NCBI GenBank assembly: GCA_029781865.1
Contig: JAKOVW010000093.1
Coordinates: forward strand, 4,718-68,717
Source of the DNA: Bacteroidota bacterium
Lineage (GTDB): Bacteria > Bacteroidota > Bacteroidia > Chitinophagales > Saprospiraceae
DNA: 64,000 bases
Direction: 5' to 3'
Positions 35,048 through 51,639 of this stretch are shown in pieces. The notes beneath the pieces were generated by a model. The model was given only the letters and a program-made list of their open reading frames with translations, had not been told where the DNA came from and did not search any database. The translations under genes and the position numbers were made by a program. How positions within the stretch are numbered: position 1 is the first letter of the stretch; each line of letters opens with the position of its first letter.

Positions 35048-37051
35048 TTATTGATTCGTTGGTGCCGGATTGGTCTTCCCGGTACTAAAACTAATTGGAA
35101 CGTTTGCATTGGCCGGACTTACTCTGACGTAACCCTGCATTTCCTGATGAAGAGCGGAACAAAAATCGGTGCAGTACATCGGAAATACGCCAACGCGTTC
35201 CGGTTTCCATATCAAGGTTTGCGTTTCACCCGGCATAATCAACAATTCTGCATTATTAGCACCTTTGACTGCAAATCCATGGGGTACGTCCCAGTCTTGT
35301 TCAAGATTGGTAACATGGAAGTAAACGGCATCTCCCATTTTTACTCCTTCAATGTTATCCGGTACAAAGTGCGAACGAATCGAAGTCATATAAACATGAA
35401 CTTCATTTCCTTTGCGTTCCACTTTTGCATTTTTTTCACCCATAGCAACATATGGATTTTTATTCTCCTCAATTTTAAAAATCTTAGTACTGTTTTTTGC
35501 TAACAGTTCTGCAGGAATGGCTTCCGCATAATGTGGCTCACCTATGGTTGGAAAATCCAATAACAACTTCATTTTATCTCCATCAATAGAATACAATTGA
35601 GCAGATTGTGCCAGTTCAGGTCCCGTTGGAAGAAATCTGTCTTTGGTAATTTTATTGTAAGCGATAACATATTTTCCCCACGGCTTTTTAGTAGGACCGC
35701 CTGGCACACAAAGGTGACCAATAGAATAATAGGTAGGAACTCTATCTAAAACCTGTAAATCGCTCAAACGCCATTTTACAATTTCAGAAGAAACAAAAAA
35801 TGAAGTATATGCATTTCCATTCGCATCAAACTCAGTATGAAGAGGACCCAAACCTGGTTTTTTTACTTCGCCATGTAACACGGCATCGTATTTTAAAACA
35901 GGTATTCCTTCATAATCGCCATCATAATTTTTAGCCGCAATGGCAGCCTGTATTTTTGTAAAGGAAAAAACAGGTATTACTGCAGCCAATTTACCACTAC
36001 CCACGATATATTCTCCTGTAGGATCGGTATCGCAACCATGTGGGGATTTTGGACAAGGCATGAAATAAACCATATCAGGACAATCTTTTGGATCCAGAAC
36101 GATAACTTCATTTTCCATACTGGAGCTGGCCGAATGTGTTTGTTCATCATACGAATTGTGTGCATACTTCACCTGCTTTTTCATTCCTTTTCCTGCTTTC
36201 AGATATTCTTCTGCTTTTTTCCAGTTCACGGCAAGCACAAAGTCTTTATCCTTTTGAGATGCATTTACTTCTAATAAAGTATTTGCTCTTTCTGAGTTGT
36301 AACAACTGAAGAAAAACCATCCATGTGATTTTCCCTTTCCTGCACGAGCCAGGTCAAAATTTACACCGGGAAGTAAGATCTGAAATGCAATATGCATCTT
36401 ACCGGAAGCCGGATCCACACCTATAAAACTCACTGTTCCTCTGAAATTTTCCTTATACGTATTGATAGGCACATCCTGCTTGTCACCAATGGGTACACTA
36501 AACCGGGTTCCTGCAACTACATATTCTGAATTTTCAGTAATAAAAGGCGAGGAGTGATTTCCTGCACTATTGGGAATTTCAATAATTTCAGCAGTGCGGA
36601 ATGTTTTTAAATCCACACGCGCAATCCGTGGTGTATTATTTCCATTACCAAAAACCCATCTTCCATCATGCACCCCATCCGTTTCGGAAAGAGCAATGTG
36701 ATGTAAATCGTCCCAGGGAACAAAACCATGAGATGTATTTAACATCGGTTTGGTTTCTTCCGAATATCCATATCCTTTTTCAGGATCTACCGAAAAAACA
36801 GGGATCACTCTGAACAGCCTTCCTGATGGCAATCCGTAAACAGACATCTGACCACTGAATCCGCCGGATACGAAGTTGTAAAACTCGTCGTATTTTCCGG
36901 GAGGTACATACGCTTTAACAGCGGCATCACCGCCCATGGCAGTTTGGATTCCTTTAGGTTTGCAGGCATTCATTAAAAATGTAGCAAACAAAACAAATCC
37001 AAAGAGAGAGAGCAGCTGCATTCGTTTAAAAATCATGATTTCTTTATTCAT
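35048..37051 (-). CDS. nosZ: Nitrous-oxide reductase, Sec-dependent clade II type
   Basis: 667 aa. The C-terminal CuA motif is CTDFCSALHQEM. The N-terminal signal (MNKEIMIFKRMQLLSLFGFVLFATFLMNAC) has no twin-arginine motif. A beta-propeller region carries His-containing blocks. Confidence 0.9.
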   Translation of the reverse strand: MNKEIMIFKRMQLLSLFGFVLFATFLMNACKPKGIQTAMGGDAAVKAYVPPGKYDEFYNFVSGGFSGQMSVYGLPSGRLFRVIPVFSVDPEKGYGYSEETKPMLNTSHGFVPWDDLHHIALSETDGVHDGRWVFGNGNNTPRIARVDLKTFRTAEIIEIPNSAGNHSSPFITENSEYVVAGTRFSVPIGDKQDVPINTYKENFRGTVSFIGVDPASGKMHIAFQILLPGVNFDLARAGKGKSHGWFFFSCYNSERANTLLEVNASQKDKDFVLAVNWKKAEEYLKAGKGMKKQVKYAHNSYDEQTHSASSSMENEVIVLDPKDCPDMVYFMPCPKSPHGCDTDPTGEYIVGSGKLAAVIPVFSFTKIQAAIAAKNYDGDYEGIPVLKYDAVLHGEVKKPGLGPLHTEFDANGNAYTSFFVSSEIVKWRLSDLQVLDRVPTYYSIGHLCVPGGPTKKPWGKYVIAYNKITKDRFLPTGPELAQSAQLYSIDGDKMKLLLDFPTIGEPHYAEAIPAELLAKNSTKIFKIEENKNPYVAMGEKNAKVERKGNEVHVYMTSIRSHFVPDNIEGVKMGDAVYFHVTNLEQDWDVPHGFAVKGANNAELLIMPGETQTLIWKPERVGVFPMYCTDFCSALHQEMQGYVRVSPANANVPISFSTGKTNPAPTNQ

Positions 37052-37077
37052 CGTAAAAAATTTTAATACTGTGTCAA

Positions 37078-37551
37078 CTATTGTTCGCCATCATTCTTGC
37101 GCATAAACTCAATGATATCCCTGGCTTGTTCTTTACTTACATTTTGATTAGGCATTCTTACCAAACAGAGTTCCAATAGCTTTTGCGCTTCCGGATCTTT
37201 TTCAAGCATCATATCCACATTGGTGATCATGTTCATGATCCAGGTTGGCGTACGTCTTTTAGTAACTCCGGCCCATCCGGGACCGACCAGTTTCTCACTG
37301 GTAAGTCGGTGACAAGCATTGCATTTTAAATCAAAAATGTTTTGTCCTCCCTTTACCATATCTGCATTTAATGGATTTTTAAATTCAATCTCGCCCTCTT
37401 TTATTTCAGTGCCATGTACTTCCGTTTGATTTTTGGCCAGATCCTGAATATCTACCGCTTTATAATCCTTTTTTACACCACCACTACAGGCCGATTGCAA
37501 TAAGCCAAATAAGAGTAACAAGGAGAACACATTTAAAATGTTGTTTTTCAT
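37078..37551 (-). CDS. Mono-haem c-type cytochrome (nosC-like electron donor)
   Basis: Signal/lipobox LLQSACS, a single CNACH haem-binding site and a distal Met context (VRMPNQ). Sits 26 nt upstream of nosZ on the same strand. Confidence 0.8.
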   Translation of the reverse strand: MKNNILNVFSLLLLFGLLQSACSGGVKKDYKAVDIQDLAKNQTEVHGTEIKEGEIEFKNPLNADMVKGGQNIFDLKCNACHRLTSEKLVGPGWAGVTKRRTPTWIMNMITNVDMMLEKDPEAQKLLELCLVRMPNQNVSKEQARDIIEFMRKNDGEQ

Positions 37552-37626
37552 TTTTCAGAATTTTAATTTGATAAAATATTTTTAATGACTAATAATAAAG
37601 GATATTCAAGTCTTTTAATAATAACT

Positions 37627-37634
37627 CAAAATTA
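37627..37634 (-). promoter_or_regulatory. Candidate -7 box (TAATTTTG on the minus strand) for the cytochrome c-nosZ transcript
   Basis: Plus-strand CAAAATTA is the reverse complement of a TAnnTTTG match, about 75 nt upstream of the cytochrome c ATG. Confidence 0.3.
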
Positions 37635-37714
37635 TTTTTGGAAAAATTTGGATTCAATGATAATGCTCAGTGAAGAACATGATAAATATCAGGGAACTAC
37701 TATTTGATGAAAAC

Positions 37715-37722
37715 TAGCTTTG
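37715..37722 (+). promoter_or_regulatory. Bacteroidota-type -7 box TAGCTTTG
   Basis: TAnnTTTG match ending 16 nt upstream of the Rrf2 gene ATG (37739). Confidence 0.45.
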
Positions 37723-37738
37723 CCTTTCTGAAATAGTA

Positions 37739-38188
37739 ATGATGTATTTTTCAAAATCATTTGGCTATGCAATACGTGGTATCCTGTATCTTGCCATGAA
37801 TGAAAGTGATTCTAGTAATAACATACAGTCGGATGAGCTGGCTGAACAACTGTCCATTCCCAAGTATTTCATGGCCAAATTGCTGAAAAAACTGGCAAAA
37901 GCTGAAATTATTAAATCCATTAAAGGCCCTTCCGGTGGATTTCATCTCATGCCGGGAACACTGGATAAAAAGTTAATTGACATTTTAAAGATAACCGATC
38001 CGAAAGATCCTTTTGACAAATGTATATTGGAATGGAAGCTTTGCAATGCCAAACAACCCTGCCCCATGCATCATCTCATTACCAAGTCTAAAAATGAATT
38101 GATTACCGTTTTACATTCCACTTCGATCTCCGATTTAATTGGAAACAAAGCCAATTTAAGAATACAATTATTGGATAAGGTGATCTGA
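37739..38188 (+). CDS. Rrf2-family transcriptional regulator with a three-Cys (Fe-S type) motif
   Basis: N-terminal wHTH (FGYAIRGILYLA..SDELAEQLSIPKYFMAKLLKKLAKAEIIKSIKGPSGGF). Also a C-x6-C-x5-C cluster followed by His (CILEWKLCNAKQPCPMHH). Confidence 0.8.
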   Translation: MMYFSKSFGYAIRGILYLAMNESDSSNNIQSDELAEQLSIPKYFMAKLLKKLAKAEIIKSIKGPSGGFHLMPGTLDKKLIDILKITDPKDPFDKCILEWKLCNAKQPCPMHHLITKSKNELITVLHSTSISDLIGNKANLRIQLLDKVI

Positions 38189-38286
38189 GAATGAAGTGAT
38201 TTAAACACAGCTTTGAAACTAATTTCAACTACATTTGCGAAAACAAAGTCCTTATTACACTTCTGGCTTATTTATTATCCTTATTC

Positions 38287-39060
38287 ATGGGCTTCATTCT
38301 TGGCCTTCTTGGAGCCGGAGGAGCTATTCTGACGATTCCCATACTTGTGTATCTCGTTGGAATGGATGCACAATTGGCGATTACCTGCTCTCTATTTATT
38401 GTATGTGTGACCAGCCTGACAGGTGGCTTTCGGTATATTTATTCTAAACAAGTTCATTTTGATTCTATTTATTTGTTTGGAATTCCATCTGTTATTGCTG
38501 TTTGGACGGTAAGAAAATTTGTTTTACCTGCTATTCCGGAAGATCTGATTCATACCGTATTTTTTAAATTGAGCAAATCATCTGCTTTACTATTCCTGTT
38601 TTCCATTCTGATGATGATAGCCGCATATAAGATGATTAAACCAGGTATTAAACATGATGAGAAAAACTATTCTGACCGGAGCAAACTTCCTTTTATACTC
38701 AACGGTATTTTGGTTGGCTGTATCACCGGTTTGCTGGGCGCCGGAGGTGGTTTTTTAATTGTGCCTGCATTAGTAATCATTCAAAAACTGGATTTTAAAA
38801 TTGCCGCAGGTACGTCCCTTTGCATTATTGCCATTAATTCTGCAATTGGATTTGTAAGTAATACCGAACATCTCCATGAAATGGACTGGTCCTTTTTGCT
38901 CACCTTTACCGGAATATCTGTAATTGGCATTTTTATAGGAAGCTATACCGCCACTAAGTATCCCTCTCAAAAATTAAAACCTGCTTTTGGTTACCTGTTG
39001 ATACTCATGTCTGTCTTCATTCTTGTCAAAGAATTATACGCAATTATGACTACTATGTGA
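38287..39060 (+). CDS. TauE/SafE-family (DUF81) anion exporter
   Basis: 257 aa and polytopic, with duplicated GxLGAGGxxxxxP motifs (GLLGAGGAILTIP, GLLGAGGGFLIVP). Confidence 0.8.
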   Translation: MGFILGLLGAGGAILTIPILVYLVGMDAQLAITCSLFIVCVTSLTGGFRYIYSKQVHFDSIYLFGIPSVIAVWTVRKFVLPAIPEDLIHTVFFKLSKSSALLFLFSILMMIAAYKMIKPGIKHDEKNYSDRSKLPFILNGILVGCITGLLGAGGGFLIVPALVIIQKLDFKIAAGTSLCIIAINSAIGFVSNTEHLHEMDWSFLLTFTGISVIGIFIGSYTATKYPSQKLKPAFGYLLILMSVFILVKELYAIMTTM

Positions 39061-39142
39061 TTTTTTCATTTAAATCCTGGAGCATACTGTACTGAGATGG
39101 ACTGGAGCTTTCGGGATCTTTAAAATTGTTGAAAAACATCGT

Positions 39143-39150
39143 TAACTTTG
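39143..39150 (+). promoter_or_regulatory. Bacteroidota-type -7 box TAACTTTG
   Basis: TAnnTTTG match about 100 nt upstream of the rhodanese ATG (39249). Confidence 0.35.
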
Positions 39151-39248
39151 CCAAAGGAAAATTAATTTCAACAAAATTCAAGCTGATTTGTATAATCTAT
39201 GCTTTTCAAGATTAGATTCATTTATTTTCAATTATTAAAACATTCATC

Positions 39249-39617
39249 ATGAAGCAAAATTTTTTTCTCATACTCATGTTGTTTCTGGGTTTATTTTCCT
39301 GTAAAAATGAGATTTCCGGACAGGCCAAAGGCAAAGATATTGAAACACAGTTCAAAAAGGATTCCGGTATCCTGGTAGATGTAAGAACGCTTGATGAGTG
39401 GAATGAAGGCCATCATAAAAAAGCCATCCATTCCGATTGGAACAGTGGCGAATTTAAAGAACAGTCAAAAAACTGGGATCCATCAAAGGCTTATTATCTG
39501 CATTGCGCAGCTGGTGTTCGTGCAGGTAAAGCAGCAGATTATCTGAAGAGTAAAGGCTTTAAAAAAGTCTACAATCTTGGTGGCTACGACGATGTGAAAA
39601 ATTTAAAACTAGAGTAA
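39249..39617 (+). CDS. Exported single-domain rhodanese (PspE-like sulfurtransferase), probable lipoprotein
   Basis: Lipobox GLFSCK, a rhodanese fold (VDVRTLDEWNEGH) and the active-site loop HCAAGVRAGKAA. Confidence 0.8.
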   Translation: MKQNFFLILMLFLGLFSCKNEISGQAKGKDIETQFKKDSGILVDVRTLDEWNEGHHKKAIHSDWNSGEFKEQSKNWDPSKAYYLHCAAGVRAGKAADYLKSKGFKKVYNLGGYDDVKNLKLE

Positions 39618-39625
39618 ATAAGTAC

Positions 39626-40837
39626 ATGCAAAAAACCTCATTTAACGTACGGGACACTCAAAAAAGAAATACTCAAGAACCTGAAAAAGCCATTCTTGTT
39701 GGCGTCATACTTCCCGATCAAAGCGAAGCTCTTGTAAACGAACATCTTGATGAACTGGAATTTCTTGCATTAACAGCAGGCGCTCAGGTAATCAAGCGAT
39801 TTACGCAAAAGCTTTCTGCAATCAACAGCCACTCCTTTATAGGTTCCGGTAAAATTGAAGAAATCAAAAAATACATGGAACACTTTCCTGTGGATCTCAT
39901 CATTTTTGATGATGATCTCAGTGGCAAGCAACAAAATCACCTGGAAGAAAAATTAGAAGTTAAAATTGTCGATCGCAGCTTTTTAATACTCGACATCTTT
40001 GCCAGTCGTGCACAAACCGCACAAGCCAAAACCCAGGTCGAACTGGCTCAATTGCAATATATCTATCCAAAATTGCGGGGGATGTGGTCACATCTCGAGC
40101 GCCAGCGAGGTGGTATCGGGATGCGTGGGCCCGGCGAACAGGAAATTGAAACAGACCGACGGATTGTAAAGGAAAAAATTTCTCTGCTCAAGAAAAAACT
40201 GGAAAAGATCGATCTCCAAAATATAACGCAAAGAAAAAACCGGGATGAAATGATCCGCGTCTCGTTAGTAGGATATACCAATGTTGGCAAGTCTACTTTA
40301 ATGAATGTACTTAGCAAGTCTGACTTGTTTGCAGAAAATAAATTATTTGCAACGCTCGACACCACAGTTCGAAAAGTCGTATGGGACGCAATGCCATTTT
40401 TATTATCTGACACCGTCGGTTTTATTCGAAAACTACCACATCATTTAATTGAAAGTTTTAAATCGACCCTGGATGAAGTCCGTGAATCTGATATACTCCT
40501 TCATGTGATCGACATATCTCATCCACAGTATCTCGATCATATTGAAACAGTAAATTCGACCTTAAAAGATATTGGAGCCGGAGACAAAAGTATGATTCTG
40601 GTTTGTAACAAAATGGATGCATACCGGACCAATCATTTTGATGATTTACTTGACATGGAAACGAAAAAGGAACTGGAAGAAGAATTGGTACAGAAAATGG
40701 AAAATTTGTTTCCCGGACCTGTGGTCTTTATTTCAGCAAAGTCTATGGAGAATATCAACCAACTGAAAACCCTGCTAAAGGAACACATTGCAAAGCAATA
40801 TCTGATCCGTTATCCTTATCGAGCAAAAACATGGTAG
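39626..40837 (+). CDS. hflX: GTPase HflX
   Basis: HflX N-terminal domain (ILDIFASRAQTAQAKTQVELAQLQY), G1 GYTNVGKST, G3 DTVGF and G4 NKMD. Confidence 0.9.
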   Translation: MQKTSFNVRDTQKRNTQEPEKAILVGVILPDQSEALVNEHLDELEFLALTAGAQVIKRFTQKLSAINSHSFIGSGKIEEIKKYMEHFPVDLIIFDDDLSGKQQNHLEEKLEVKIVDRSFLILDIFASRAQTAQAKTQVELAQLQYIYPKLRGMWSHLERQRGGIGMRGPGEQEIETDRRIVKEKISLLKKKLEKIDLQNITQRKNRDEMIRVSLVGYTNVGKSTLMNVLSKSDLFAENKLFATLDTTVRKVVWDAMPFLLSDTVGFIRKLPHHLIESFKSTLDEVRESDILLHVIDISHPQYLDHIETVNSTLKDIGAGDKSMILVCNKMDAYRTNHFDDLLDMETKKELEEELVQKMENLFPGPVVFISAKSMENINQLKTLLKEHIAKQYLIRYPYRAKTW

Positions 40838-42273: not shown

Positions 42274-43269
42274 TTAATGCTTATGAATGCCTCGATGTTT
42301 TTTATACCAGTCCACCGTCCGCCTTACAGAAGTTTGAAAATCTGCCACCGGCTTATATCCCAGGATTTTATTCGCTTTAGCTACTGAAAAGTGATAATCT
42401 TTTCCTGCATTATTAATGCGATATCTCGTTAGCAACGGTGCCTTTTTAATTCGCAATGCTTTATAGCTTAGCTCCATTAAATATGCGATAAAATAAATAA
42501 ACAGAAATGGAATGGATCTCCGCGTTGGTTTTATATTTAATTCCTGTGACAGCGAATCGGTAAATTCTTTCCAGGCAATTTCCAGCCCGTCAGTAATAAT
42601 AAATGTTTCACCGTTAGCGCCGGGATGGAAACAAGCCAGCTCGATGCCGTGAACCAAATTTTCAATGTACGTCGGACAAGTCAATGATTTTCCTTTATTT
42701 ATGTAAACGAACTGTCCCTTGCGAATAAGATCGAGATAAGGAGCGATAAATTTTTCATCACTTGGTCCGAACACATTTCCAGGCCGTACGATCACTATTT
42801 CCATTGACGTTTGCTTTGCATATTCATTCAGCCAGGTTTCCGCTGCTATTTTAGACTGGCTGTAGGCCACTTCTGATTTTACCATTGCCCGTTCTTCTGT
42901 TCCATTTTTAAAGTCAAAACCATGAACGGCCACAGAACTTATTTGCACAAATCGCTTTACACCGGATACGGATGCCAGCGTTGCCACATATTGCGTTCCA
43001 TTCACATTGCTTTTTTCAAAATGGGAATAGGGTCCCCAATCTATCACTGCTCCTGCTGTATGGATAACTATATCAATTCCGTCAAAAATCCCCTTTAAAC
43101 TATCCGGATTGGTAATATCACCATACTTCAGTTGAATGTCAATTCCACGGAGTAAATCAAGATTAGCGTTTTTTCTAACCAATCCAAAAACTTCATGCTG
43201 TTTCGTCAGAAAATGCAAACACGTTCTGCTGCCAATAAATCCGTTTGCACCTGTAACCAGAATTTTCAT
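42274..43269 (-). CDS. NAD(P)-dependent epimerase/dehydratase-family (extended SDR) reductase; candidate 3-ketosphingoid/ceramide reductase
   Basis: GANGFIGS Rossmann motif and YSQSK catalytic Tyr-x3-Lys. It is the last gene of the spt-like operon; the functional assignment is contextual. Confidence 0.7.
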   Translation of the reverse strand: MKILVTGANGFIGSRTCLHFLTKQHEVFGLVRKNANLDLLRGIDIQLKYGDITNPDSLKGIFDGIDIVIHTAGAVIDWGPYSHFEKSNVNGTQYVATLASVSGVKRFVQISSVAVHGFDFKNGTEERAMVKSEVAYSQSKIAAETWLNEYAKQTSMEIVIVRPGNVFGPSDEKFIAPYLDLIRKGQFVYINKGKSLTCPTYIENLVHGIELACFHPGANGETFIITDGLEIAWKEFTDSLSQELNIKPTRRSIPFLFIYFIAYLMELSYKALRIKKAPLLTRYRINNAGKDYHFSVAKANKILGYKPVADFQTSVRRTVDWYKKHRGIHKH

Positions 43270-43357
43270 TTATATAATTTAGTAATTTCTGCTTTAATTC
43301 TTATCGTTGATATACCAACAATGAACTATGTCAACTTTTTTTGATAAAATTTTCAGA

Positions 43358-44080
43358 TTAAAAAACAATACCTGACTGCTTCAATACAAAATAATCAGTC
43401 AATACTCCGATTGTGATATGCATAAACCATACGTACCAGATAGACCTGGTTTGTATAGCAATATATCCAAAAACAATTCCCGCTGCGATGGATCCCAATG
43501 TTTCGCCTTCCGGCTTGCCCAAATGAATTAAGCAGGAAGAAATGGTTTGAATTAAAATGGCAGAAGCAATCCCAAATTCTTTTTTCAATCCAAAAAGTAA
43601 AAACCCCCGAAAGAAAAACTCCCAGGCAATATAATACAGAAGGATATACAATAATTCATATTGCCAAAAAGAACTGCTATCCCGAAATAATGATCTTGCC
43701 ATTGGATATTCTGCACGTATATCAGGCATCTGTGCAGCAAACCAGATCAATGGTACAATGACGAGCGGAACAAAAATGGCCAGTAACTTTAAACCCAATT
43801 TATAATTTCCCAGACCCAGCCCGAAATCCGCAAGAGGCTTTTTCACCACAAATAACAAGTAAGACAGTGGTATTAAGCCAACCAACAAGAAAAACAAAGA
43901 GAACTTCCAGTATTGAACAAACAAATCAAGGGATGGATGACCGGTATAGCCCGGGAACAGACTTAGAAATTGCTGCCCGGTATTATGATAGTAATACAGA
44001 CTTAGTAAAACGGGTGCACACAAAAGGTACACAAAGGTATGTGAAAAGCTGAATGTACTTTTTGTTTCCATTCTGTTCAA
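43358..44080 (-). CDS. CPBP-family intramembrane glutamic endopeptidase (CAAX-protease-like)
   Basis: Polytopic protein with motif 1 AWEFFFRGF (EExxxR-type), motif 2 SSCLIHLG and a downstream FMHITIG His. Confidence 0.75.
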   Translation of the reverse strand: MNRMETKSTFSFSHTFVYLLCAPVLLSLYYYHNTGQQFLSLFPGYTGHPSLDLFVQYWKFSLFFLLVGLIPLSYLLFVVKKPLADFGLGLGNYKLGLKLLAIFVPLVIVPLIWFAAQMPDIRAEYPMARSLFRDSSSFWQYELLYILLYYIAWEFFFRGFLLFGLKKEFGIASAILIQTISSCLIHLGKPEGETLGSIAAGIVFGYIAIQTRSIWYVWFMHITIGVLTDYFVLKQSGIVF

Positions 44081-44092
44081 TAACTGAATGCC

Positions 44093-45220
44093 TTAGGCAA
44101 TTGATTTCCTGAAGATCCGGTATTTTTTTTCAACAATACCTCCTGCTTTGATCAGTGCCTGGTTCATTTCCGGATTATTCTCAAGTATCCAGGATGCTTC
44201 TCCGGTTTCGAGGTAAGGATGTTTTTGGACATAGTCAAAACTTCTGGCATAGAAATACGCATCAATTCCCAATTTTCTGTATTCCTCCAGCACACCCAAA
44301 GCTATGACCCTTGTATTTTTTATTTTCCCTTTATTGAGCAGCAGTTTAAAAATGCCGAATGGCAATAATCGTCCTCTTTTTATTTTGATCTGAACTTCAT
44401 TGATGTCCGGAAGAGTAAGAGAAAATCCGATCACCTGTCCATCTTTTTCTGCAAGCATAACCAATTCAGGATCGATTATCATTTTCATGTCCTTTGCTGC
44501 ATGCAAAAATTCTTTCTCACTCATAGGAGTGTATCCCAAATTTTTACTCCATGCCTGATTATATACGTGAACTGTGCTTTTTACATCATTGATGAAATTC
44601 TTCATATTGATCTTTCTCACCGTAATTCCCTTTCTTTCCAGTCTTTCTTTCAGCATGGGTGCTGATTGGCGGAGTCTTTCCGGAAATTTATTGGAGTCCA
44701 ATTTATATGCAAGCAGATCCATTTTCTTTTGCAAACCATATCGCTCCAGAAATGTCTGATAATAAGGTTTGTTATACGTCATCATTACTGCAGGAGGAAC
44801 ATCAAATCCTTCGATTAGTAAACCGCAGGTATGATTCACTGAAAAATTATAAGGCCCTTCAAGAAATTTCAGATTTTCATTTTTCAACCATTCGACAGCC
44901 GTATTTAATAATGCTTCTGCAACCTGGTAGTCATTGATAACATCAAAAAAACCAAAAACGCCGATAGGCTCTTTGGTAAAATCGATCATATTGTCATCGC
45001 GAACAGCAGCAATTCGCCCAACCACTTTACCATTGTCCTTTGCTAAAAACAACTGTGCTTTTGCCGTATCGAAAAAAGGATTTTTCTTTGGGTCCAGATG
45101 ATCGCGCTGGGCTATAAATAATTCAGGAACAAAATTGGGGTCTCCTTCATATAAATCATACACAAAATCAATAAACTCAGCGACCTCCTTTTTATTTTGA
45201 ACTGGCTGTATAACTAACAT
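44093..45220 (-). CDS. Large GNAT-superfamily N-acyltransferase; candidate sphingoid-base N-acyltransferase (bacterial ceramide synthase-like)
   Basis: 375 aa with two GNAT-like halves (..GKVVGRIAAV.. and ..VIALGVLEEYRKLGIDAYFY..). It lies 13 nt downstream of the alpha-oxoamine synthase gene. The functional call is by context. Confidence 0.6.
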   Translation of the reverse strand: MLVIQPVQNKKEVAEFIDFVYDLYEGDPNFVPELFIAQRDHLDPKKNPFFDTAKAQLFLAKDNGKVVGRIAAVRDDNMIDFTKEPIGVFGFFDVINDYQVAEALLNTAVEWLKNENLKFLEGPYNFSVNHTCGLLIEGFDVPPAVMMTYNKPYYQTFLERYGLQKKMDLLAYKLDSNKFPERLRQSAPMLKERLERKGITVRKINMKNFINDVKSTVHVYNQAWSKNLGYTPMSEKEFLHAAKDMKMIIDPELVMLAEKDGQVIGFSLTLPDINEVQIKIKRGRLLPFGIFKLLLNKGKIKNTRVIALGVLEEYRKLGIDAYFYARSFDYVQKHPYLETGEASWILENNPEMNQALIKAGGIVEKKYRIFRKSIA

Positions 45221-45233
45221 CTGAACATGTTGA

Positions 45234-46439
45234 TTATAAGATCTTCAGATCTTTAGCGTGATCATAGATTTTGTTTGTGGCAAAATCTATTTGCGCCTTG
45301 GTATGATTCGACATGATAGAGAAGCGTATCAAAGAAGAATCAGCACTTGTGGCCGGAGAAACTACCGGATTTAGGAAAATGCCATCTTCATATAATCTCT
45401 TCGTAATGATATACGTTTTGTAATCGTCCCGGATATACAATGGGATAATAGGCGTTTCTGCTTTTCCTACGTCAAAGCCCATATCCTTGAACAGCTTGAT
45501 TGAATAATGGGTGTTTTCCCATAATTTTTCAATCAGTTCAGGCTGCTCCTCGATAATATCCAAAGCCTCCATGACTGCTGCAACTGAAGAAGGCTGCAGA
45601 CCTGCACTAAACATGAGTGCTCTGGAACTGTGTTTAATATGGTTTACAATGTCTTTATCAGCAGCTACAAACCCGCCTAAAGCGGCCAGTGACTTACTAA
45701 ATGTGCCTGTAATGAGGTGTACCCGATCAGTCAAATTAAAGTAAGACGATGTACCGGAGCCATTTTTGCCCAACACTCCAATGGCATGGGCGTCATCGAC
45801 CATTACCATAGCATTGTGCCGCTCAGCTGTTTCTACAATGTCGGGTAACGCAGAAATGTCGCCATCCATACTAAATATTCCCTCGGTGACTACCAGCTTA
45901 ATTGCCTGATTAGGACAGTGTTGCAGTAGTTTTTCGAGTGACTGTACATTATTATGCTCGAATTTGTATTTTTTGCCGAGAGAAAGGGTAGCACTTTCAA
46001 TAATGGATGCATGGCTTAATTTATCCATAAAAAGACAGCCATTGCGATCTATTATAGGAGGTATTGCTCCTAAATTAGCCTGGAAACCCGTACTAAAAAT
46101 GACTGAATCTTCCTTACCTACATAATCTGCCAGGCGCTCTTCCAACTCTCTGTGTATACCCAGGTTGCCATTTAATAAGCGGGAACCTGATACACCCGTT
46201 CCGTATTTTTCGATTGCCTTTATGGCAGCCGCTTTAACTCTCGGATGGTTGGTCAAACCTAAGTAACTATTCGAACCGAACATGAGGATTTTCCGCCCGT
46301 GTTCTGTCATTTCGACATCCTGGGCAGAGTCCAGCTCCCTATAAAAAAGATAAATATCATTATCCTTCAGATAGTCAACCTGGGCACCTAAATGCTCAAT
46401 TTTTTGCCTTAGCAGATCCATTTCAACTTGTTGTTTCAT
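45234..46439 (-). CDS. PLP-dependent alpha-oxoamine synthase (serine palmitoyltransferase / cysteate-acyltransferase / KBL-BioF family)
   Basis: 401 aa with FGSNSYLGL, DDAHAIGVLG and the PLP lysine block GTFSKSLAALGG. Its lipid-gene neighbourhood favours an Spt-like rather than BioF role. Confidence 0.8.
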   Translation of the reverse strand: MKQQVEMDLLRQKIEHLGAQVDYLKDNDIYLFYRELDSAQDVEMTEHGRKILMFGSNSYLGLTNHPRVKAAAIKAIEKYGTGVSGSRLLNGNLGIHRELEERLADYVGKEDSVIFSTGFQANLGAIPPIIDRNGCLFMDKLSHASIIESATLSLGKKYKFEHNNVQSLEKLLQHCPNQAIKLVVTEGIFSMDGDISALPDIVETAERHNAMVMVDDAHAIGVLGKNGSGTSSYFNLTDRVHLITGTFSKSLAALGGFVAADKDIVNHIKHSSRALMFSAGLQPSSVAAVMEALDIIEEQPELIEKLWENTHYSIKLFKDMGFDVGKAETPIIPLYIRDDYKTYIITKRLYEDGIFLNPVVSPATSADSSLIRFSIMSNHTKAQIDFATNKIYDHAKDLKIL

Positions 46440-46540
46440 GGATTGATTTGAATATTTTGAAAAAATATGTAAAATAATTTACACATGTAACTATAATGGA
46501 ATCTATTTTTTGCAAGGATACAAAACATTTTCTTAATTCT

Positions 46541-47209
46541 TTATGATAAGGGTAACTGTATTTTAAACCAAATCCAAGATACCCATTTATATGCTAAATA
46601 AGCACAGGCAACACCACCGATTATATCAACGGTGTAATGACAGTGCTGAATCAAAAGCAAAATAGCCATTAATCCCGTAATAATACCAAAAATAAACTTT
46701 AAGCCCGGACTATTCCAGGTTAAGAGCATAAAGATAAAGATTGTTGCGGTATGTCCGCTGAAAAATAAGTCTTTCAAATTCGCCCGATGATTATACGCTA
46801 TGGTTTCGAGAACCGGATCCTGCAAGGCAAGAATGCCTACCGGTGCATTTAACGGAGTAACATACAAGCAGATATTCCTCATATACTGCAAAACAATCAG
46901 TACCTGGATGCCTCTGAATAATAACCATGGCATGCGCAAACAATATAAAATCGCCACAGCAGCAGAAGAATACAGAATAAAAAAAATAAAATTTGAAAGA
47001 TCTATAGCCGGAATCCAGTTTAATAAAATGTCGTTCATTTCACATCCTGGCCGACCTTCGATATAATCCAGAAAAGGGTTCAGATAAAAAAACAAAGGAA
47101 TCATTGAAATAAACGTAATCAGAACCGTTTGTCTGAATTTTTTTATCCGTGATGCCATTCGCCACTCCTCCTTTACATTTTTAAGATATTGATTGATCAA
47201 TTGAATCAT
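46541..47209 (-). CDS. Sphingomyelin-synthase-like PAP2_C family phosphotransferase
   Basis: 222 aa and polytopic. FFSGHTATIF and HYTVDIIGG correspond to the SGHT and HYTxD catalytic motifs of the SMS/LPP superfamily. Confidence 0.7.
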   Translation of the reverse strand: MIQLINQYLKNVKEEWRMASRIKKFRQTVLITFISMIPLFFYLNPFLDYIEGRPGCEMNDILLNWIPAIDLSNFIFFILYSSAAVAILYCLRMPWLLFRGIQVLIVLQYMRNICLYVTPLNAPVGILALQDPVLETIAYNHRANLKDLFFSGHTATIFIFMLLTWNSPGLKFIFGIITGLMAILLLIQHCHYTVDIIGGVACAYLAYKWVSWIWFKIQLPLS

Positions 47210-48045
47210 TAGTAAAAATCTTAATTTGTAAAGCTTTATAAATAAGAATGAGCGCGATTTGCTTCTTTAACAGAATAGCAGTCTAAATTGCTTTTGAAAT
47301 TTCAAAGACCTGTTTAAGATTCTTCCTTTAATCTTATTAGGCTAAAGCCGAATTTTGCTATGATTTTAAAGAATTGAAGTACTGACTTTAATTTTAAAAT
47401 ACAGGGTGCAAAGATACAAACTCATTCCATCATATCAACTTTCCAGACCACACTAACAACTTATTATAGATTTTTATATTAATAAAGTTTTGATATTGAT
47501 AGGATTCGAGATCAATTCAGCTTCAGGTTAAGAAATAAATAACGAATGCTTCCCATATTGTTTGAAAACCAATACCTTTCAATCGAGTAAACTGCATTCA
47601 AAATGACGAATATCAATGCTTCTTTTTTAAATTACCCCATTGAGGGCTGCAGGACTTTCGTCTATTATCATATCGATTCTCGTTTAAATCACCCATTCCT
47701 TCAATTTTGCAAGTATCAATTCGCAGAGAAAATTCATCCACTTTATTGATCAAAAACCAACCTGATGTTAATGTCGTATTTTAAGTACTTTGATAGTAGC
47801 TTTCAAGAAATTCAATGGCCGTTCGCCAGAAAACTAAACCGGAAAATTTGTACTCAATTCAATTTAGTGATATTGAATTTTTCGTATGGAATTACTTTTT
47901 TTAATCTCAGGAAATATAATCATTCCAAGATATAAAAACTCTTGTGAATCAACCAATTAAAAATATTGTAGAAAACTTTGGATGAAAAAAAGCTGGTCAT
48001 CGGATCTCATTTTCTCCAAATCACAATCAGTTATAAAACATAATG

Positions 48046-48053
48046 TAATTTTG
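48046..48053 (+). promoter_or_regulatory. Bacteroidota-type -7 box TAATTTTG
   Basis: TAnnTTTG match about 73 nt upstream of the GTG start at 48127. Confidence 0.35.
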
Positions 48054-48126
48054 GGGGTTTGTTCTCTATCAAAAAATTACATCAGATCTTAAGATTGGAA
48101 TTTACTCAATTTAAAAACGAATAGCT

Positions 48127-49185
48127 GTGGAAACTAAAAAAGCGGAAATTACTTATCTGGACAGAAATGAACATCAATATGGTCCTGCACCTGCATGTTT
48201 TGATGCATTAAAAAATTTAAATTCAGAGACCTTAAGAGAATATTCCCGTGATCATATGCTGGGAATCAAAAGTCCGTTGTCTCTTCGATTGGCTAATGAT
48301 TACGGAATCGATGAAAAAAATGTAATGCTCGGTTTTGGTGGAGAAGATATTCTTAAACAAACTATACATTGCTATATCCATGAAGGGGATAAAATCATGA
48401 TTCCATCTTATTCCTGGTGGTATTACAAAAAAATAGCTGATGAAGTTGGTGGTATCAAAATAGAATACCCAATTGTTGAAGGTGAAGATTCCTTTTATTA
48501 TGACATTGAAGGAATGCTGAAGATCTACGATGAACAAAAGCCTAAGTTGGTACTTATTAGTTCGCCGAATAATCCCACCGGAAACCGATTGGACTTTAAT
48601 CAGTTGAAGGAAGTTTTAAACAGGATGAAAGATGCCGTGGTTGTTATGGACGAAGCTTATTCGTTGTTTTTCAATGATGACAAATCCTATCTGAAAGATA
48701 TCATAAACCATTTTTCAAACGTATTAATCATCCGTACGTTTTCCAAATTTTATGGTTTGGCCGGAGTTAGAATTGGTTTTGCATTGATGGGGAAAAACCA
48801 TGAACAACTATCGATGTTCAGCGCACGCTATCTGGGATATAACCGCTTATCAGAGCGCATTGCATTGGCTGCACTGGATTCTCAGGAATACTACAATGAC
48901 ATCTGCAAAAAAATGGCAGCAGATATGGAAATGTTCAGAACCGAATTTAATAAATTACCCGGTTTTAAAGCCTATAAATCGTATGCCAATTTTATCCTGG
49001 TCAAAATTCCTGTTGAACTAAAAGATGCATTAAAAAAATATCTTACGGAACGCAATATGGTTGTTAAGTTTATGGCCGAAGATGGGCTATTTAATCATTT
49101 GCGCATTACGATCGGAACCCAGGAACAAAATCAAATGCTCATGCAAATGGTAAAAGCATTTTTAAATGAAGCTAATAAATCATGA
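48127..49185 (+). CDS. Class I/II PLP-dependent enzyme, HisC/CobD-like (aminotransferase or phospho-amino-acid decarboxylase)
   Basis: 352 aa with a GTG start. Contains SSPNNPTGN and the PLP-Lys block RTFSKFYGLAGVRIGF, typical of histidinol-phosphate aminotransferase and threonine-phosphate decarboxylase relatives. Confidence 0.75.
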   Translation: METKKAEITYLDRNEHQYGPAPACFDALKNLNSETLREYSRDHMLGIKSPLSLRLANDYGIDEKNVMLGFGGEDILKQTIHCYIHEGDKIMIPSYSWWYYKKIADEVGGIKIEYPIVEGEDSFYYDIEGMLKIYDEQKPKLVLISSPNNPTGNRLDFNQLKEVLNRMKDAVVVMDEAYSLFFNDDKSYLKDIINHFSNVLIIRTFSKFYGLAGVRIGFALMGKNHEQLSMFSARYLGYNRLSERIALAALDSQEYYNDICKKMAADMEMFRTEFNKLPGFKAYKSYANFILVKIPVELKDALKKYLTERNMVVKFMAEDGLFNHLRITIGTQEQNQMLMQMVKAFLNEANKS

Positions 49186-50060
49186 GCTGGCTGGCGGAGT
49201 ATAAAAAATCATTGAAAATGCCTGAGGTCGAAGATGTATTTGACCTCGTTTTTTACAGGCCTCTTGCGTTCCAATTGGTCAAACTTATTTTTCCAACTAA
49301 CATCACTCCGAATCAACTCACCTTTACGGCATTAATACTGGGAATCATTTCCGGATATTTTTATGCACAGGGTTTACCTTATGGATTTTTATTGGGTGCA
49401 CTCTTCTTTATGTTATATAATGTGTTTGACTGCAGTGATGGTCAACTTGCACGCCTTAAAAATAATGGAACTCATGCAGGAAGAATTATCGATGGCATTG
49501 GGGATTACATAGCCACCCTTGCCGTTTTTCTTGGTATCGGATTTGGTTTTGCCAATCAGCAGGAAAATCCGGCATTTTGGTGGTTTCTCATTTTATTATT
49601 AATTGTTTTTAGCGTCATTCAGGCTGTGCTGGTCGATTTCTACCGCAACCGGTTTTTGGATTATGTGCTTCAGAGAAAAAACACTTTTGAAGAAGATCTT
49701 CAATCATATAAAGATGAATACGAAGTTTTGAAAGGGCAGAAAAACAAATGGTTGGACAGAACGATTATTCAAATTTATCTCTACTATTCTTCTTTTCAGG
49801 ATAAGCTGATATCAAAAGGTAAAAAGACAGTCTTTTTCATAGCCACTCCACAAGAGTATTATGAGAAAAATAAATTAATCATGAGATTGTGGACGCTGAT
49901 TAGCTCAACTGCAGAGATTACCGTATTGATCATTTGCTCTGTAATCAATCGCCTTGATCTGTTTTTTGCCATTATACTGATCGGATTCAACGCATTCGCC
50001 ATTGTTCTCTGGTTTGTGCAAAGAACTATTGACCAATCATTCAAATTGGCAAGCGAATGA
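49182..50060 (+). CDS. CDP-alcohol phosphatidyltransferase family protein
   Basis: Complete D-G-x2-A-R-x8-G-x3-D-x3-D motif (DGQLARLKNNGTHAGRIIDGIGD) in a polytopic protein. Its start overlaps the upstream stop (ATGA). Confidence 0.85.
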   Translation: MSWLAEYKKSLKMPEVEDVFDLVFYRPLAFQLVKLIFPTNITPNQLTFTALILGIISGYFYAQGLPYGFLLGALFFMLYNVFDCSDGQLARLKNNGTHAGRIIDGIGDYIATLAVFLGIGFGFANQQENPAFWWFLILLLIVFSVIQAVLVDFYRNRFLDYVLQRKNTFEEDLQSYKDEYEVLKGQKNKWLDRTIIQIYLYYSSFQDKLISKGKKTVFFIATPQEYYEKNKLIMRLWTLISSTAEITVLIICSVINRLDLFFAIILIGFNAFAIVLWFVQRTIDQSFKLASE

Positions 50061-50785
50061 AAGCACTCATTCTTGCTGCCGGAATTGCTTCCCGGCTCAG
50101 ACCGTTGACAGATAATACGCCCAAATGCCTTTTAAAGGTTGGCAACAAAAATATTCTCTCACTTACTCTGGATAATATTATCTCCAACCGTATTCAGAAA
50201 GTCGTTGTCGTGACCGGATACCGCGAAGATCAAATTAAAAATTTTATTGCTTCCGAATATCCAACTCTAGATGTGAAATATATTTATAATCCTGTTTACG
50301 ATTCAACCAATAACATTTATTCACTTTGGCTGGTAAAAAATGAGTTTGCCGGTGAAGACATGTTGCTGATGGATAGCGATATCATTTTTGACCAAAGCAT
50401 AATTACAAAACTTCTGAACTCCGGATTCGATAATTGCCTTGCATTAAAAAAGCATGAAGTTCAGGAGGAAGAAATAAAAGTTAAAGGGGATTCTGAAGGT
50501 CGTATTCTCGAGATCGGAAAAGAAGTAATCCCCAAGGAAGCTATGGGTGAATCGATTGGCATTGAAAAATTCAGCGCGCCTCTTGTAGAAAAACTGTATA
50601 AAATCCTCGATCATCTGATCATCAGGGAAAACAAAGTCAATTTGTTCTATGAAGCTGCCTTTCAAAACCTGATCGATGACGGAGAGTCTATTTTTGCCGT
50701 TGATATTACGGAACATAAATGCATGGAAATCGATACAGCACATGATCTGGAAATGGCTAATAGAATGATTACGGAAAATTATTAA
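50057..50785 (+). CDS. LicC-like nucleotidyltransferase (phospho-alcohol cytidylyltransferase family)
   Basis: N-terminal LAAGIASRLRPLTDNTPKCLL NTP-binding loop and an NNIYSLW block. Its start overlaps the upstream stop (ATGA). Confidence 0.8.
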   Translation: MKALILAAGIASRLRPLTDNTPKCLLKVGNKNILSLTLDNIISNRIQKVVVVTGYREDQIKNFIASEYPTLDVKYIYNPVYDSTNNIYSLWLVKNEFAGEDMLLMDSDIIFDQSIITKLLNSGFDNCLALKKHEVQEEEIKVKGDSEGRILEIGKEVIPKEAMGESIGIEKFSAPLVEKLYKILDHLIIRENKVNLFYEAAFQNLIDDGESIFAVDITEHKCMEIDTAHDLEMANRMITENY

Positions 50786-50805
50786 TTGAATTTTATTTCT
50801 ATCCT

Positions 50806-51639
50806 TTGACTGAGAATCTCATTATCATTTCTGTTATCGGATTAATCATAGGTCTGGTTTTATCCATTCCTGCCGGAGGACCAACCAGTATAGTCATTTT
50901 TACAAATGCGCTCAAAGGACGTACACGGTATTGTAACCTAATCAATTTTGGCGCAGCACTGGCCGATTTTACCTACCCGTTTATTTCCGTATTCTGTTTA
51001 ACTAAAATTTATTCCCTTTACAAGCCTTATATTCCTTATGTATTTCTGGCAGGTGCTTTGTTTGTCATATATACAAGTATAAAAATTTTCAAAACAAAGC
51101 TGGACATCGAAGAGAGCAATCCTGAACATCTGTTACCATCCACTATTAAAATCAAAAAAGAAAATGGTTTTTTAACCGGCATGATGTTGGGCTTTCTCAA
51201 CCCCGGCTTGTTTATCAGCTCCATGACTTCATCACTTCTGGTCCTGACCATACTCACGTCTTATGGATTTGATACAGGCGGCCTGGATAAAAAGATGAGC
51301 GAGGAAATGAAAGAGATCCGTAGCAATGACAAACCAACAAAAGATACCAATACACTTAACCTTTCAAAATATATTAAATCCAAAATTCCAAACCCAAATA
51401 ACCCTGACGAAGATCCAATTAATTTTCCTTCCAGTTATCCATTTTGGCTTAGCTTCTGTTATGCATTTTTTATTGCCATTGGAAGTGTAAGTTGGTTTTA
51501 TTATCTGACTTATCTCATTTCCAAATTCAGAAAGCGAATTAAGTCACAAGTCATAGACTATATCATAAAAGCGTTGGGATTCATCTTATTCTTAATCGGA
51601 CTATTGCTTGGTTATAAAGGAATAGCTGCTATTTTATAA
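50806..51639 (+). CDS. LysE/RhtB-like membrane protein with a ~70-aa hydrophilic insert
   Basis: TTG start 20 nt after the nucleotidyltransferase stop. Hydrophobic N- and C-terminal halves are separated by DKKMSEEMKEIRSNDKPTKDTNTLNLSKYIKSKIPNPNNPDEDPINF. Confidence 0.5.
   Translation: MTENLIIISVIGLIIGLVLSIPAGGPTSIVIFTNALKGRTRYCNLINFGAALADFTYPFISVFCLTKIYSLYKPYIPYVFLAGALFVIYTSIKIFKTKLDIEESNPEHLLPSTIKIKKENGFLTGMMLGFLNPGLFISSMTSSLLVLTILTSYGFDTGGLDKKMSEEMKEIRSNDKPTKDTNTLNLSKYIKSKIPNPNNPDEDPINFPSSYPFWLSFCYAFFIAIGSVSWFYYLTYLISKFRKRIKSQVIDYIIKALGFILFLIGLLLGYKGIAAIL

Follow-up and report, generated by a model that had tools for sequence, protein, structure and literature searches.

A probable phosphosphingolipid biosynthetic island in an uncultured Saprospiraceae bacterium, with a head-group module that differs from the inositol module of its relatives

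Ceramide phosphoethanolamine (CPE) and its phosphoceramide relatives rank among the major lipids of Bacteroidota, a phylum that includes gut and oral species with host-active sphingolipids, and to our knowledge no bacterial enzyme that adds ethanolamine phosphate to ceramide has been identified. Animals have two classes of CPE synthase: insect CPES, a member of the CDP-alcohol phosphotransferase family that uses CDP-ethanolamine, and human SMSr, the CPE synthase of the SMS family. Here we analyse a stretch of 64,000 nucleotides from an uncultured Saprospiraceae bacterium (GenBank assembly GCA_029781865.1, contig JAKOVW010000093.1, positions 4,718 to 68,717), hereafter the window, in which nine genes at 42274-51639 probably constitute an island for making a phosphosphingolipid, with a head-group module unlike the inositol one found in relatives.

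The closest described system is the sphingolipid region CC_1152-CC_1168 of Caulobacter crescentus, which holds spt, acpR, cerR, aasR and cerS together with head-group and transport genes (PMC11324152). Within the phylum, the inositol clusters of Bacteroides come nearest, and it has been said that in known Bacteroidota producers the three ceramide-core genes do not lie close together (PMC11334938). When insect CPES was used as a BLAST query against B. thetaiotaomicron, no match was returned (PMC8791184), and the Bacteroides ethanolamine phosphoceramide synthase has been reported as not found.

The nine open reading frames (ORFs) of the island fall into two tightly packed divergent operons. On the minus strand lie an extended short-chain dehydrogenase/reductase (SDR; 42274-43269), a CPBP/Rce1-like polytopic membrane protein (43358-44080), a GNAT-type N-acyltransferase (44093-45220), an alpha-oxoamine synthase (45234-46439) and an SMS-like PAP2 protein (46541-47209), separated by 88, 12, 13 and 101 bp. 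The plus strand carries a HisC/CobD-family pyridoxal phosphate (PLP) enzyme (48127-49185), a CDP-alcohol phosphotransferase (49182-50060), a LicC-like cytidylyltransferase (50057-50785) and a LysE-like membrane protein (50806-51639), joined by two 4-bp overlaps and one 20-bp gap. A convergent peptidase gene abuts the end of each operon. This layout, around an ORF-free spacer of 917 bp, had been proposed in a sequence-only reading of the same DNA; its coordinates and strands were confirmed, the longest ORF in the spacer being 56 aa, and its family labels held for all nine proteins in domain, NCBIfam and PDB/fold searches (Epimerase-type SDR, Rce1-like CPBP, GNAT, class I/II alpha-oxoamine synthase, PAP2_C, HisC/CobD-like PLP enzyme, CDP-OH_P_transf, NTP_transferase and LysE in Pfam/NCBIfam terms). 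The closest named relatives of the proteins come from Saprospiraceae metagenome-assembled genomes (MAGs). Three further lineages share this divergent arrangement of nine genes (loci L175, L176 and L177; ~70-83% protein identity), so the arrangement is not a chance one.

Set beside the described systems, the locus resembles the Caulobacter island in being a multi-operon assembly that joins a ceramide core to nucleotidyltransferases and a CDP-alcohol-type enzyme, for what would be an anionic or zwitterionic phospho-head group, and its GNAT is homologous, by way of YghO and a Roseomonas protein, to the cerS-family protein. However, the window has no dedicated acyl carrier protein (ACP), acyl-ACP synthetase, ceramide kinase or LptC2F2G2, whereas Caulobacter, whose head group is phosphoglycerate, has no PLP enzyme, LicC-type enzyme, SMS-like PAP2 or LysE-like partner. 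The Bacteroides inositol phosphoceramide module is alike in pairing a CDP-alcohol family enzyme with a PAP2 or other transferase and in ending on dihydroceramide, the predicted end point in the window too, but MIPS, the PgpA-like phosphatase, PIPS and the AUR1-like PAP2 (the BT1522-1526-type module) are found nowhere in the 64-kb window, the BT1527-like gene is likewise absent, and the PLP enzyme would supply the head group in place of MIPS. Both enzyme classes of the animal CPE synthases are represented at the locus; the bacterial proteins are much shorter, the PAP2 protein shares a very low 18% identity with human SMSr in structural alignment, and an activity of this kind is here a prediction from sequence and model.

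The ceramide core is encoded by three genes of the minus operon. The sequence-only reading had named a grouping with BioF or KBL as the outcome that would count against its alpha-oxoamine synthase; it is instead well supported by family and structure-database scores that this enzyme groups with Bacteroidota serine palmitoyltransferase (SPT). Among NCBIfam families it scores 566.5 bits with SerpalmtaseCFB (NF047600) against 374 with KBL and 364 with BioF, and among PDB entries 437 bits with Sphingobacterium SPT against 255 with KBL and 219 with cysteate acyltransferase.

The GNAT, a protein of 375 aa, matches no curated family, and a PDB profile search with its alignment gave marginal GNAT matches only; it is, over the full length, 35% identical to E. 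coli YghO and 33% identical to a Roseomonas protein. The Roseomonas homologue holds the CC_1154 (cerS) position of proteobacterial spt clusters, flanked by a sterol-desaturase-like gene and a nucleotidyltransferase, with LptF/G, CDP-alcohol enzyme and acylglycerol-kinase-like genes nearby. E. coli yghO diverges from an operon for an acyl-AMP ligase, an epimerase, an ACP and an alpha-oxoamine synthase, and extra lptF/lptG genes adjoin. Both clusters contain alpha-oxoamine synthase, ACP, acyl-AMP ligase, epimerase and LptF/G genes and so agree with the published arrangement around Caulobacter cerS (PMC11324152), and because of this match and the full-length homology we place the GNAT in the bCerS family, as a candidate ceramide synthase. 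One E. coli match (H6) carries no annotation. Together, the yghO gene (L169:7983-9125, record NZ_MG591698.1) and its neighbours (L169:1346-7579) give E. coli a full set of ceramide genes of the Caulobacter type.

The SDR (Pfam Epimerase, 1e-35) has HpnA and OleD, the latter a 2-alkyl-3-oxoalkanoate reductase, as its best NCBIfam matches, both far under cut-off. It shares 56% identity with the single SDR of a Saprospiraceae sphingolipid/inositol cluster (L046), which is again preceded by a CPBP gene, 29% with an Aureispira SDR that lies beside an alpha-oxoamine synthase and a GNAT, and 23% (E 5e-14) with the epimerase of the yghO-linked cluster. By family and position it is assigned to the reductase step, as a candidate 3-keto(ceramide/sphinganine) reductase and CerR-equivalent.

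To place these genes in context, GTDB species genomes were scanned with the GNAT alignment, which gave 80 loci selected by GNAT similarity. The gene directly upstream of the GNAT encodes SPT in 73 of them, and the one directly downstream encodes an epimerase-type SDR in 68, so that the three genes, one operon in the window, are clustered in 68-73 of the 80 Bacteroidota genomes. The SPT scores, the homology to YghO and this synteny (~70/80) bear out the earlier proposal that the minus operon encodes Spt, a bCerS-type GNAT and a putative CerR-type SDR.

The first gene of the minus operon encodes a putative SMS/SMSr-like phospho-head-group transferase, and here too the earlier label stands. The protein matches PF14360 (PAP2_C), the model of the SMS type, with 30.9 bits (gathering cut-off 27) and keeps the catalytic motifs DLFFSGH(T) and H-Y-T-x-D (D147-H153 and T154; H191, Y192, T193, V194, D195), of which S151, G152, H153, T154 and H191-D195 vary little or not at all among 25 homologues. 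A sequence search of the PDB with the protein found nothing. In a fold search of the PDB, its AlphaFold2 (AF2) model (pLDDT 92) comes closest to the ceramide-bound structure of human SMSr (8ijq), at a modest E of 1e-3 and TM of 0.62/0.53; lipid phosphate phosphatase 1 (LPP1) and an inositol phosphoceramide (IPC) synthase rank behind it. Orthologues of at least 40% identity lie directly upstream of SPT in L007, L173, the IPM92 genome and L175-L177, and this linkage spans four Saprospiraceae lineages; since distant homologues, in Melioribacter and one Bacteroidota MAG, are not near SPT, the link is limited to the closer orthologues. From sequence and model, we consider the PAP2 protein SMS-like; its gene linkage to SPT makes it a candidate for moving a phospho-head group from a glycerophospholipid to ceramide.

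The plus-strand operon had been read as a head-group activation route, and its further analysis agrees with this. A metagenome scan with the alignment of the CDP-alcohol enzyme gave 80 loci, in which its partners stand in fixed order: the HisC-like gene in 54, the LicC-like gene in 56 and the LysE-like gene in 52. No further conserved neighbour family was found around the cassette in these loci, and from the fixed order and the lack of other constant neighbours the four genes can be regarded as a self-contained unit. The CDP-alcohol phosphotransferase (Pfam, 7e-14) belongs to a family of 231 clusters at E<=1e-30 and has the complete CDP-alcohol signature D83xxD86G87xxA90R91x8G100xxxD104xxxD108, which is invariant or nearly so in 16 homologues. 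Over 130 residues it shares only ~27-30% identity with the PIPS type, and its AF2 model (pLDDT 84) has AF2299 as best fold (TM 0.55). The LysE-like protein (Pfam LysE, 2e-10) is its constant partner.

The cytidylyltransferase aligns full-length with LicC, the CTP:phosphocholine cytidylyltransferase (77.6 bits), and scores 61 bits with the phosphonate cytidylyltransferase PntC. It is translationally coupled to the CDP-alcohol enzyme, and in two relatives (P0477, P0485) a CDP-alcohol enzyme at the N-terminus is fused to an NTP transferase at the C-terminus; because some relatives fuse the two, the transferase probably uses the CDP-alcohol made next door. The 4-bp overlaps, the constant co-occurrence and the fusions are consistent with a Kennedy-type use, in which the donor would be a soluble CDP-alcohol. 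The fusions resemble the archaeal IPCT-DIPPS fusion.

The substrate of the cytidylyltransferase would come from the PLP enzyme, whose stop codon overlaps the next start by 4 bp and which is 50-76% identical across 54 cassette loci. It scores 234 bits with the hisC family TIGR01141, under the equivalog cut-off of 276.55, and is for that reason taken as a HisC-family paralogue and not HisC itself; its score with CobD (TIGR01140) is 127.4 bits, under the cut-off of 290.55, and among PDB entries it scores 123 bits with HisC and 88 bits with the Ser/Thr-phosphate decarboxylase-like 6oux. Precedents for two reactions come from Campylobacter Cj1436 and Cj1437, which we take to belong to the same broad PLP family. 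Each leads in one PLP step from a central metabolite to an amino-alcohol phosphate, Cj1436 making ethanolamine phosphate from phosphoserine and Cj1437 serinol phosphate from dihydroxyacetone phosphate (PMC11800397). The products of these enzymes and of LicC and PntC decorate teichoic acid, lipopolysaccharide (LPS) or capsule, whereas the next enzyme in the window is a membrane CDP-alcohol phosphotransferase. Two further head groups were considered. A phosphonate of the PntC kind was set aside as unlikely, since neither phosphoenolpyruvate mutase nor another conserved neighbour accompanies the cassette, and phosphocholine seems unlikely, since the PLP enzyme supplies the substrate.

A variant of the cassette keeps the CDP-alcohol and usually the LysE-like genes, and has a FabG-like SDR and/or a TagD-like cytidylyltransferase in place of the HisC-like and LicC-like genes (L128:4254-6328; L131:9507-11852; also L127, L130, L132, L136, L138-L141 and L154). 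This suggests an exchangeable head-group supply around a constant transferase pair, and hints that one transferase scaffold may serve for a further head group, possibly glycerol.

Taken together, these genes allow a route to be proposed, with substrates and products predicted from the genes present, their families and catalytic motifs, their synteny and their linkage. Spt would condense serine with an acyl thioester, the bCerS/YghO-family GNAT would N-acylate the product, and the epimerase-type SDR would reduce the 3-keto group to give dihydroceramide. The SMS/SMSr-like PAP2 protein could then move a phospho-head group from a glycerophospholipid onto ceramide. On the other strand, the HisC-family enzyme would make a small amino-alcohol phosphate, with ethanolamine phosphate from decarboxylation of phosphoserine as one candidate and serinol phosphate from transamination of dihydroxyacetone phosphate as the other; the LicC-like enzyme would convert it into a CDP-alcohol, and the CDP-alcohol phosphotransferase would attach the phospho-alcohol to the hydroxyl of a lipid. 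Gene linkage favours ceramide itself, the most likely acceptor; alternatively the acceptor could be diacylglycerol, in which case the SMS-like enzyme would pass the product to ceramide. A possible role for the LysE-like partner is translocation of the product or of the head group. Both kinds of transfer have precedents, in insect CPES and in human SMSr.

The sequence-only reading expected the two operons to co-occur in related genomes, and this held in part. The cassette lies beside SPT-bCerS-CerR in four independent gene arrangements. It is divergent in the window and in L175-L177; convergent in L098, where it ends 9 bp from the SPT-GNAT-SDR operon; and, in L166 and partly in L144, included in one tightly packed co-directional operon, SPT-GNAT-SDR-LysE-HisC-CDPOH-NTP, with no PAP2 gene. 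Chance proximity within 10 kb is ~0.5% per genome (two loci in a genome of 4-6 Mb), and since several independent arrangements occur among ~35 informative loci, linkage by chance is very unlikely. The L166 operon and the L098 arrangement also suggest ceramide as the acceptor of a CPES-like transfer. The part of the expectation that did not hold is generality: no cassette was found near any of the 80 GNAT-selected GTDB loci, and 29 of the 31 metagenome cassette loci of at least 9 kb have no SPT within 10 kb.

Both of these counts weigh against the reading of the locus as one phosphosphingolipid island, and so do several further points. The nearest other species (L007) has PAP2-SPT-GNAT and no cassette nearby, and in a Saprospiraceae genome with a GNAT of 72% identity (L174) the cassette comes immediately after GT9, Wzz and Wzy_C genes. 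The locus would hold two head-group routes that are possibly redundant, and in other Saprospiraceae the SMS-like PAP2 gene is linked to SPT in the absence of the cassette, so the single linear pathway proposed at first is not upheld. The PLP enzyme is nearer to HisC than to phospho-amino-acid decarboxylases, and its sequence fits neither a decarboxylase nor a transaminase decisively. The SDR is only ~25% identical to the usual SDR of the CerR position, directly after the GNAT in 68 of the 80 genomes, and the membership of the GNAT in the bCerS family was set indirectly, through YghO and Roseomonas synteny.

What the cassette replaces can be seen in relatives. In 39-54 of the 80 genomes the SPT-GNAT-SDR trio is followed by an inositol module, consisting of inositol-phosphate synthase, a PgpA-like phosphatase, GtrA-like and BT1527-like proteins, a PIPS-type CDP-alcohol enzyme, an AUR1-like PAP2 and a hydroxylase, which are the inositol phosphoceramide genes of B. 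thetaiotaomicron (PMC8791184, PMC9246714). One-piece clusters of core and head-group genes are therefore common in environmental Bacteroidota, and the cassette sits where relatives hold the inositol head-group module, a module swap. We read the cassette as what may be a mobile head-group module, repeatedly recruited to sphingolipid loci. Superclusters of ~10 genes, in which SPT-bCerS-CerR precedes the whole inositol phosphoceramide module, were seen in Chitinophagaceae, Dyadobacter, Pedobacter, Mucilaginibacter and Saprospiraceae (L014, L017, L022, L041 and ~40 other loci of L007-L086, e.g. L046:8781-19583). A BT1527-like protein of ~720-870 aa with a carboxypeptidase-regulatory-like domain accompanies sphingolipid clusters whatever their head-group module (L166:254-2416; fam3 genes in 54/80 loci, e.g. 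L045:12244-14814), and might act in sphingolipid transport or assembly.

The claim that the combination is undescribed as a unit in Bacteroidota has to be narrowed, given that inositol-type one-piece clusters are common and that a multi-operon island is known from Caulobacter (PMC11324152). Three features are new: the make-up of the head-group module, which combines a HisC-family PLP enzyme and a LicC-like enzyme with a CDP-alcohol enzyme of a distinct family and a LysE-like partner; the recurrent linkage of this module to ceramide genes; and a bacterial PAP2 protein resembling SMSr. A literature search for these three found no description of them. The locus offers two bacterial candidates, one from each animal CPE-synthase class, for the missing ceramide phosphoethanolamine-type synthase, and the cassette can be seen as a portable head-group supply unit. 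With core genes clustered in environmental Bacteroidota, and head-group modules, inositol or cassette, swapped at the same site, a simple genomic rule may predict which sphingolipid a genome makes.

A bolder form of this proposal, which we put forward tentatively and consider unlikely as a whole, is that the cassette is the first bacterial Kennedy-type route ending on ceramide. Its CDP-amino-alcohol:ceramide phosphotransferase would have arisen independently of insect CPES, the head group may be new to lipids (e.g., serinol phosphate from dihydroxyacetone phosphate), and the sister cassette, in which a reductase and a TagD-like cytidylyltransferase take the place of the PLP enzyme, would make the glycerol analogue.

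The alternative that survives best is that the two operons are independent neighbours: the minus operon alone would make a phosphosphingolipid, by SMSr-like transfer from phosphatidylethanolamine, and the cassette would be a Kennedy-type glycerophospholipid route on diacylglycerol with no obligatory link to ceramide. This would account for a cassette that is self-contained and mostly without sphingolipid neighbours, and for the PAP2-SPT linkage that occurs without it, and the nearest structural relatives of the CDP-alcohol enzyme are uninformative on the acceptor. However, it leaves unexplained the four independent arrangements that set the cassette against SPT-bCerS-CerR, including one co-directional operon with no PAP2 gene, as well as the position of the cassette at the site of the relatives' inositol module, and we regard it as rather doubtful.

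Much less likely is a role for the cassette in decorating a surface glycan or LPS with a phospho-amino-alcohol, as in LicC-dependent phosphocholine decoration, so that its nearness to sphingolipid genes would reflect shared envelope function only. LicC is the best solved relative of the nucleotidyltransferase, the L174 cassette has the glycan neighbours described above, and in one lineage the cassette precedes UDP-glucose dehydrogenase and UpxY-like genes. Glycan decoration from CDP-alcohols uses LicD-type transferases, whereas the window enzyme is a CDP-OH_P_transf protein that is integral to the membrane and carries the motif of lipid synthases, and the glycan neighbours are lineage-specific (1 and 5 loci). 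Least likely of all, to the point of being hard to credit, is that the alpha-oxoamine synthase, GNAT and SDR make a non-sphingolipid acyl-amino lipid (capnine/sulfonolipid-type or another 2-amino-3-keto product) and not ceramide: the synthase does fall below the NF047600 equivalog cut-off (566.5 against 640 bits), though this is its best family by a wide margin, and Bacteroidota also make sulfonolipids with a related synthase (PMC9304779), but its PDB score with Sphingobacterium SPT is 437 bits against 219 with cysteate acyltransferase, no cysteate synthase lies nearby, and in relatives the trio is joined to the inositol phosphoceramide module.

The remaining gene of the minus operon encodes the CPBP/Rce1-like protein (Pfam Rce1-like, 1e-11), for which gene callers place the start at 44071. 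Orthologues of 54-72% identity lie within the sphingolipid clusters L025, L046 and L175-L177, and the motifs WEFFFRG, CLIH and HxxIGVLTD are invariant among them. The gene (also L025:8819-9568 and L046:16165-16884) is a conserved member of Saprospiraceae sphingolipid clusters. Canonical CPBP proteases show EExxxR where these proteins invariably have WEFFFRG; because the first glutamate is replaced, the protein may not be a protease.

The spacer between the operons (47210-48126; 29.6% GC) is treated as an ordinary AT-rich divergent promoter region, on its sequence features. Its length differs in relatives (874, 524 and ~940 bp) and conservation is limited to short blocks. A search against Rfam gave no family at the gathering score or at E<=1, and a snoRNA model match of 19.7 bits was dismissed as noise. 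No conserved small ORF was found in the spacer, a 40-aa gene called in L177 having no counterpart, and a role as a functional element was rejected on these grounds. A sigma-70 scan of the spacer gave no more sites than shuffled sequence, and no terminators were found in it. The consensus TAnnTTTG marks Bacteroidota promoters, and the spacer has exactly two matches to this -7 element, one facing each operon: TATCTTTG at 47409-47416 on the minus strand, 207 nt upstream of the PAP2 ATG and kept in L175, L176 and L177, and TAATTTTG at 48046-48053 on the plus strand, 81 nt upstream of the GTG of the HisC-like gene and shared with L175 and L177. Elsewhere the spacer is variable in sequence as well as in length.

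Two observations concern the wider setting of such genes. On the 122-kb plasmid pAUEa of Aureispira anguillae, a Saprospiraceae isolate, an SDR, an alpha-oxoamine synthase and a bCerS-type GNAT lie side by side (L170:6320-10149), which shows that plasmids can carry sphingolipid core genes. Past M29 peptidase and HflX genes, on the side of the island where the SDR lies, the window carries rhodanese, TauE-like, Rrf2-regulator, cytochrome c and NosZ-type (nos_propeller) genes at ~35200-39700 (read from L001:16823-21206), a neighbourhood that suggests a nitrous-oxide-reducing organism.

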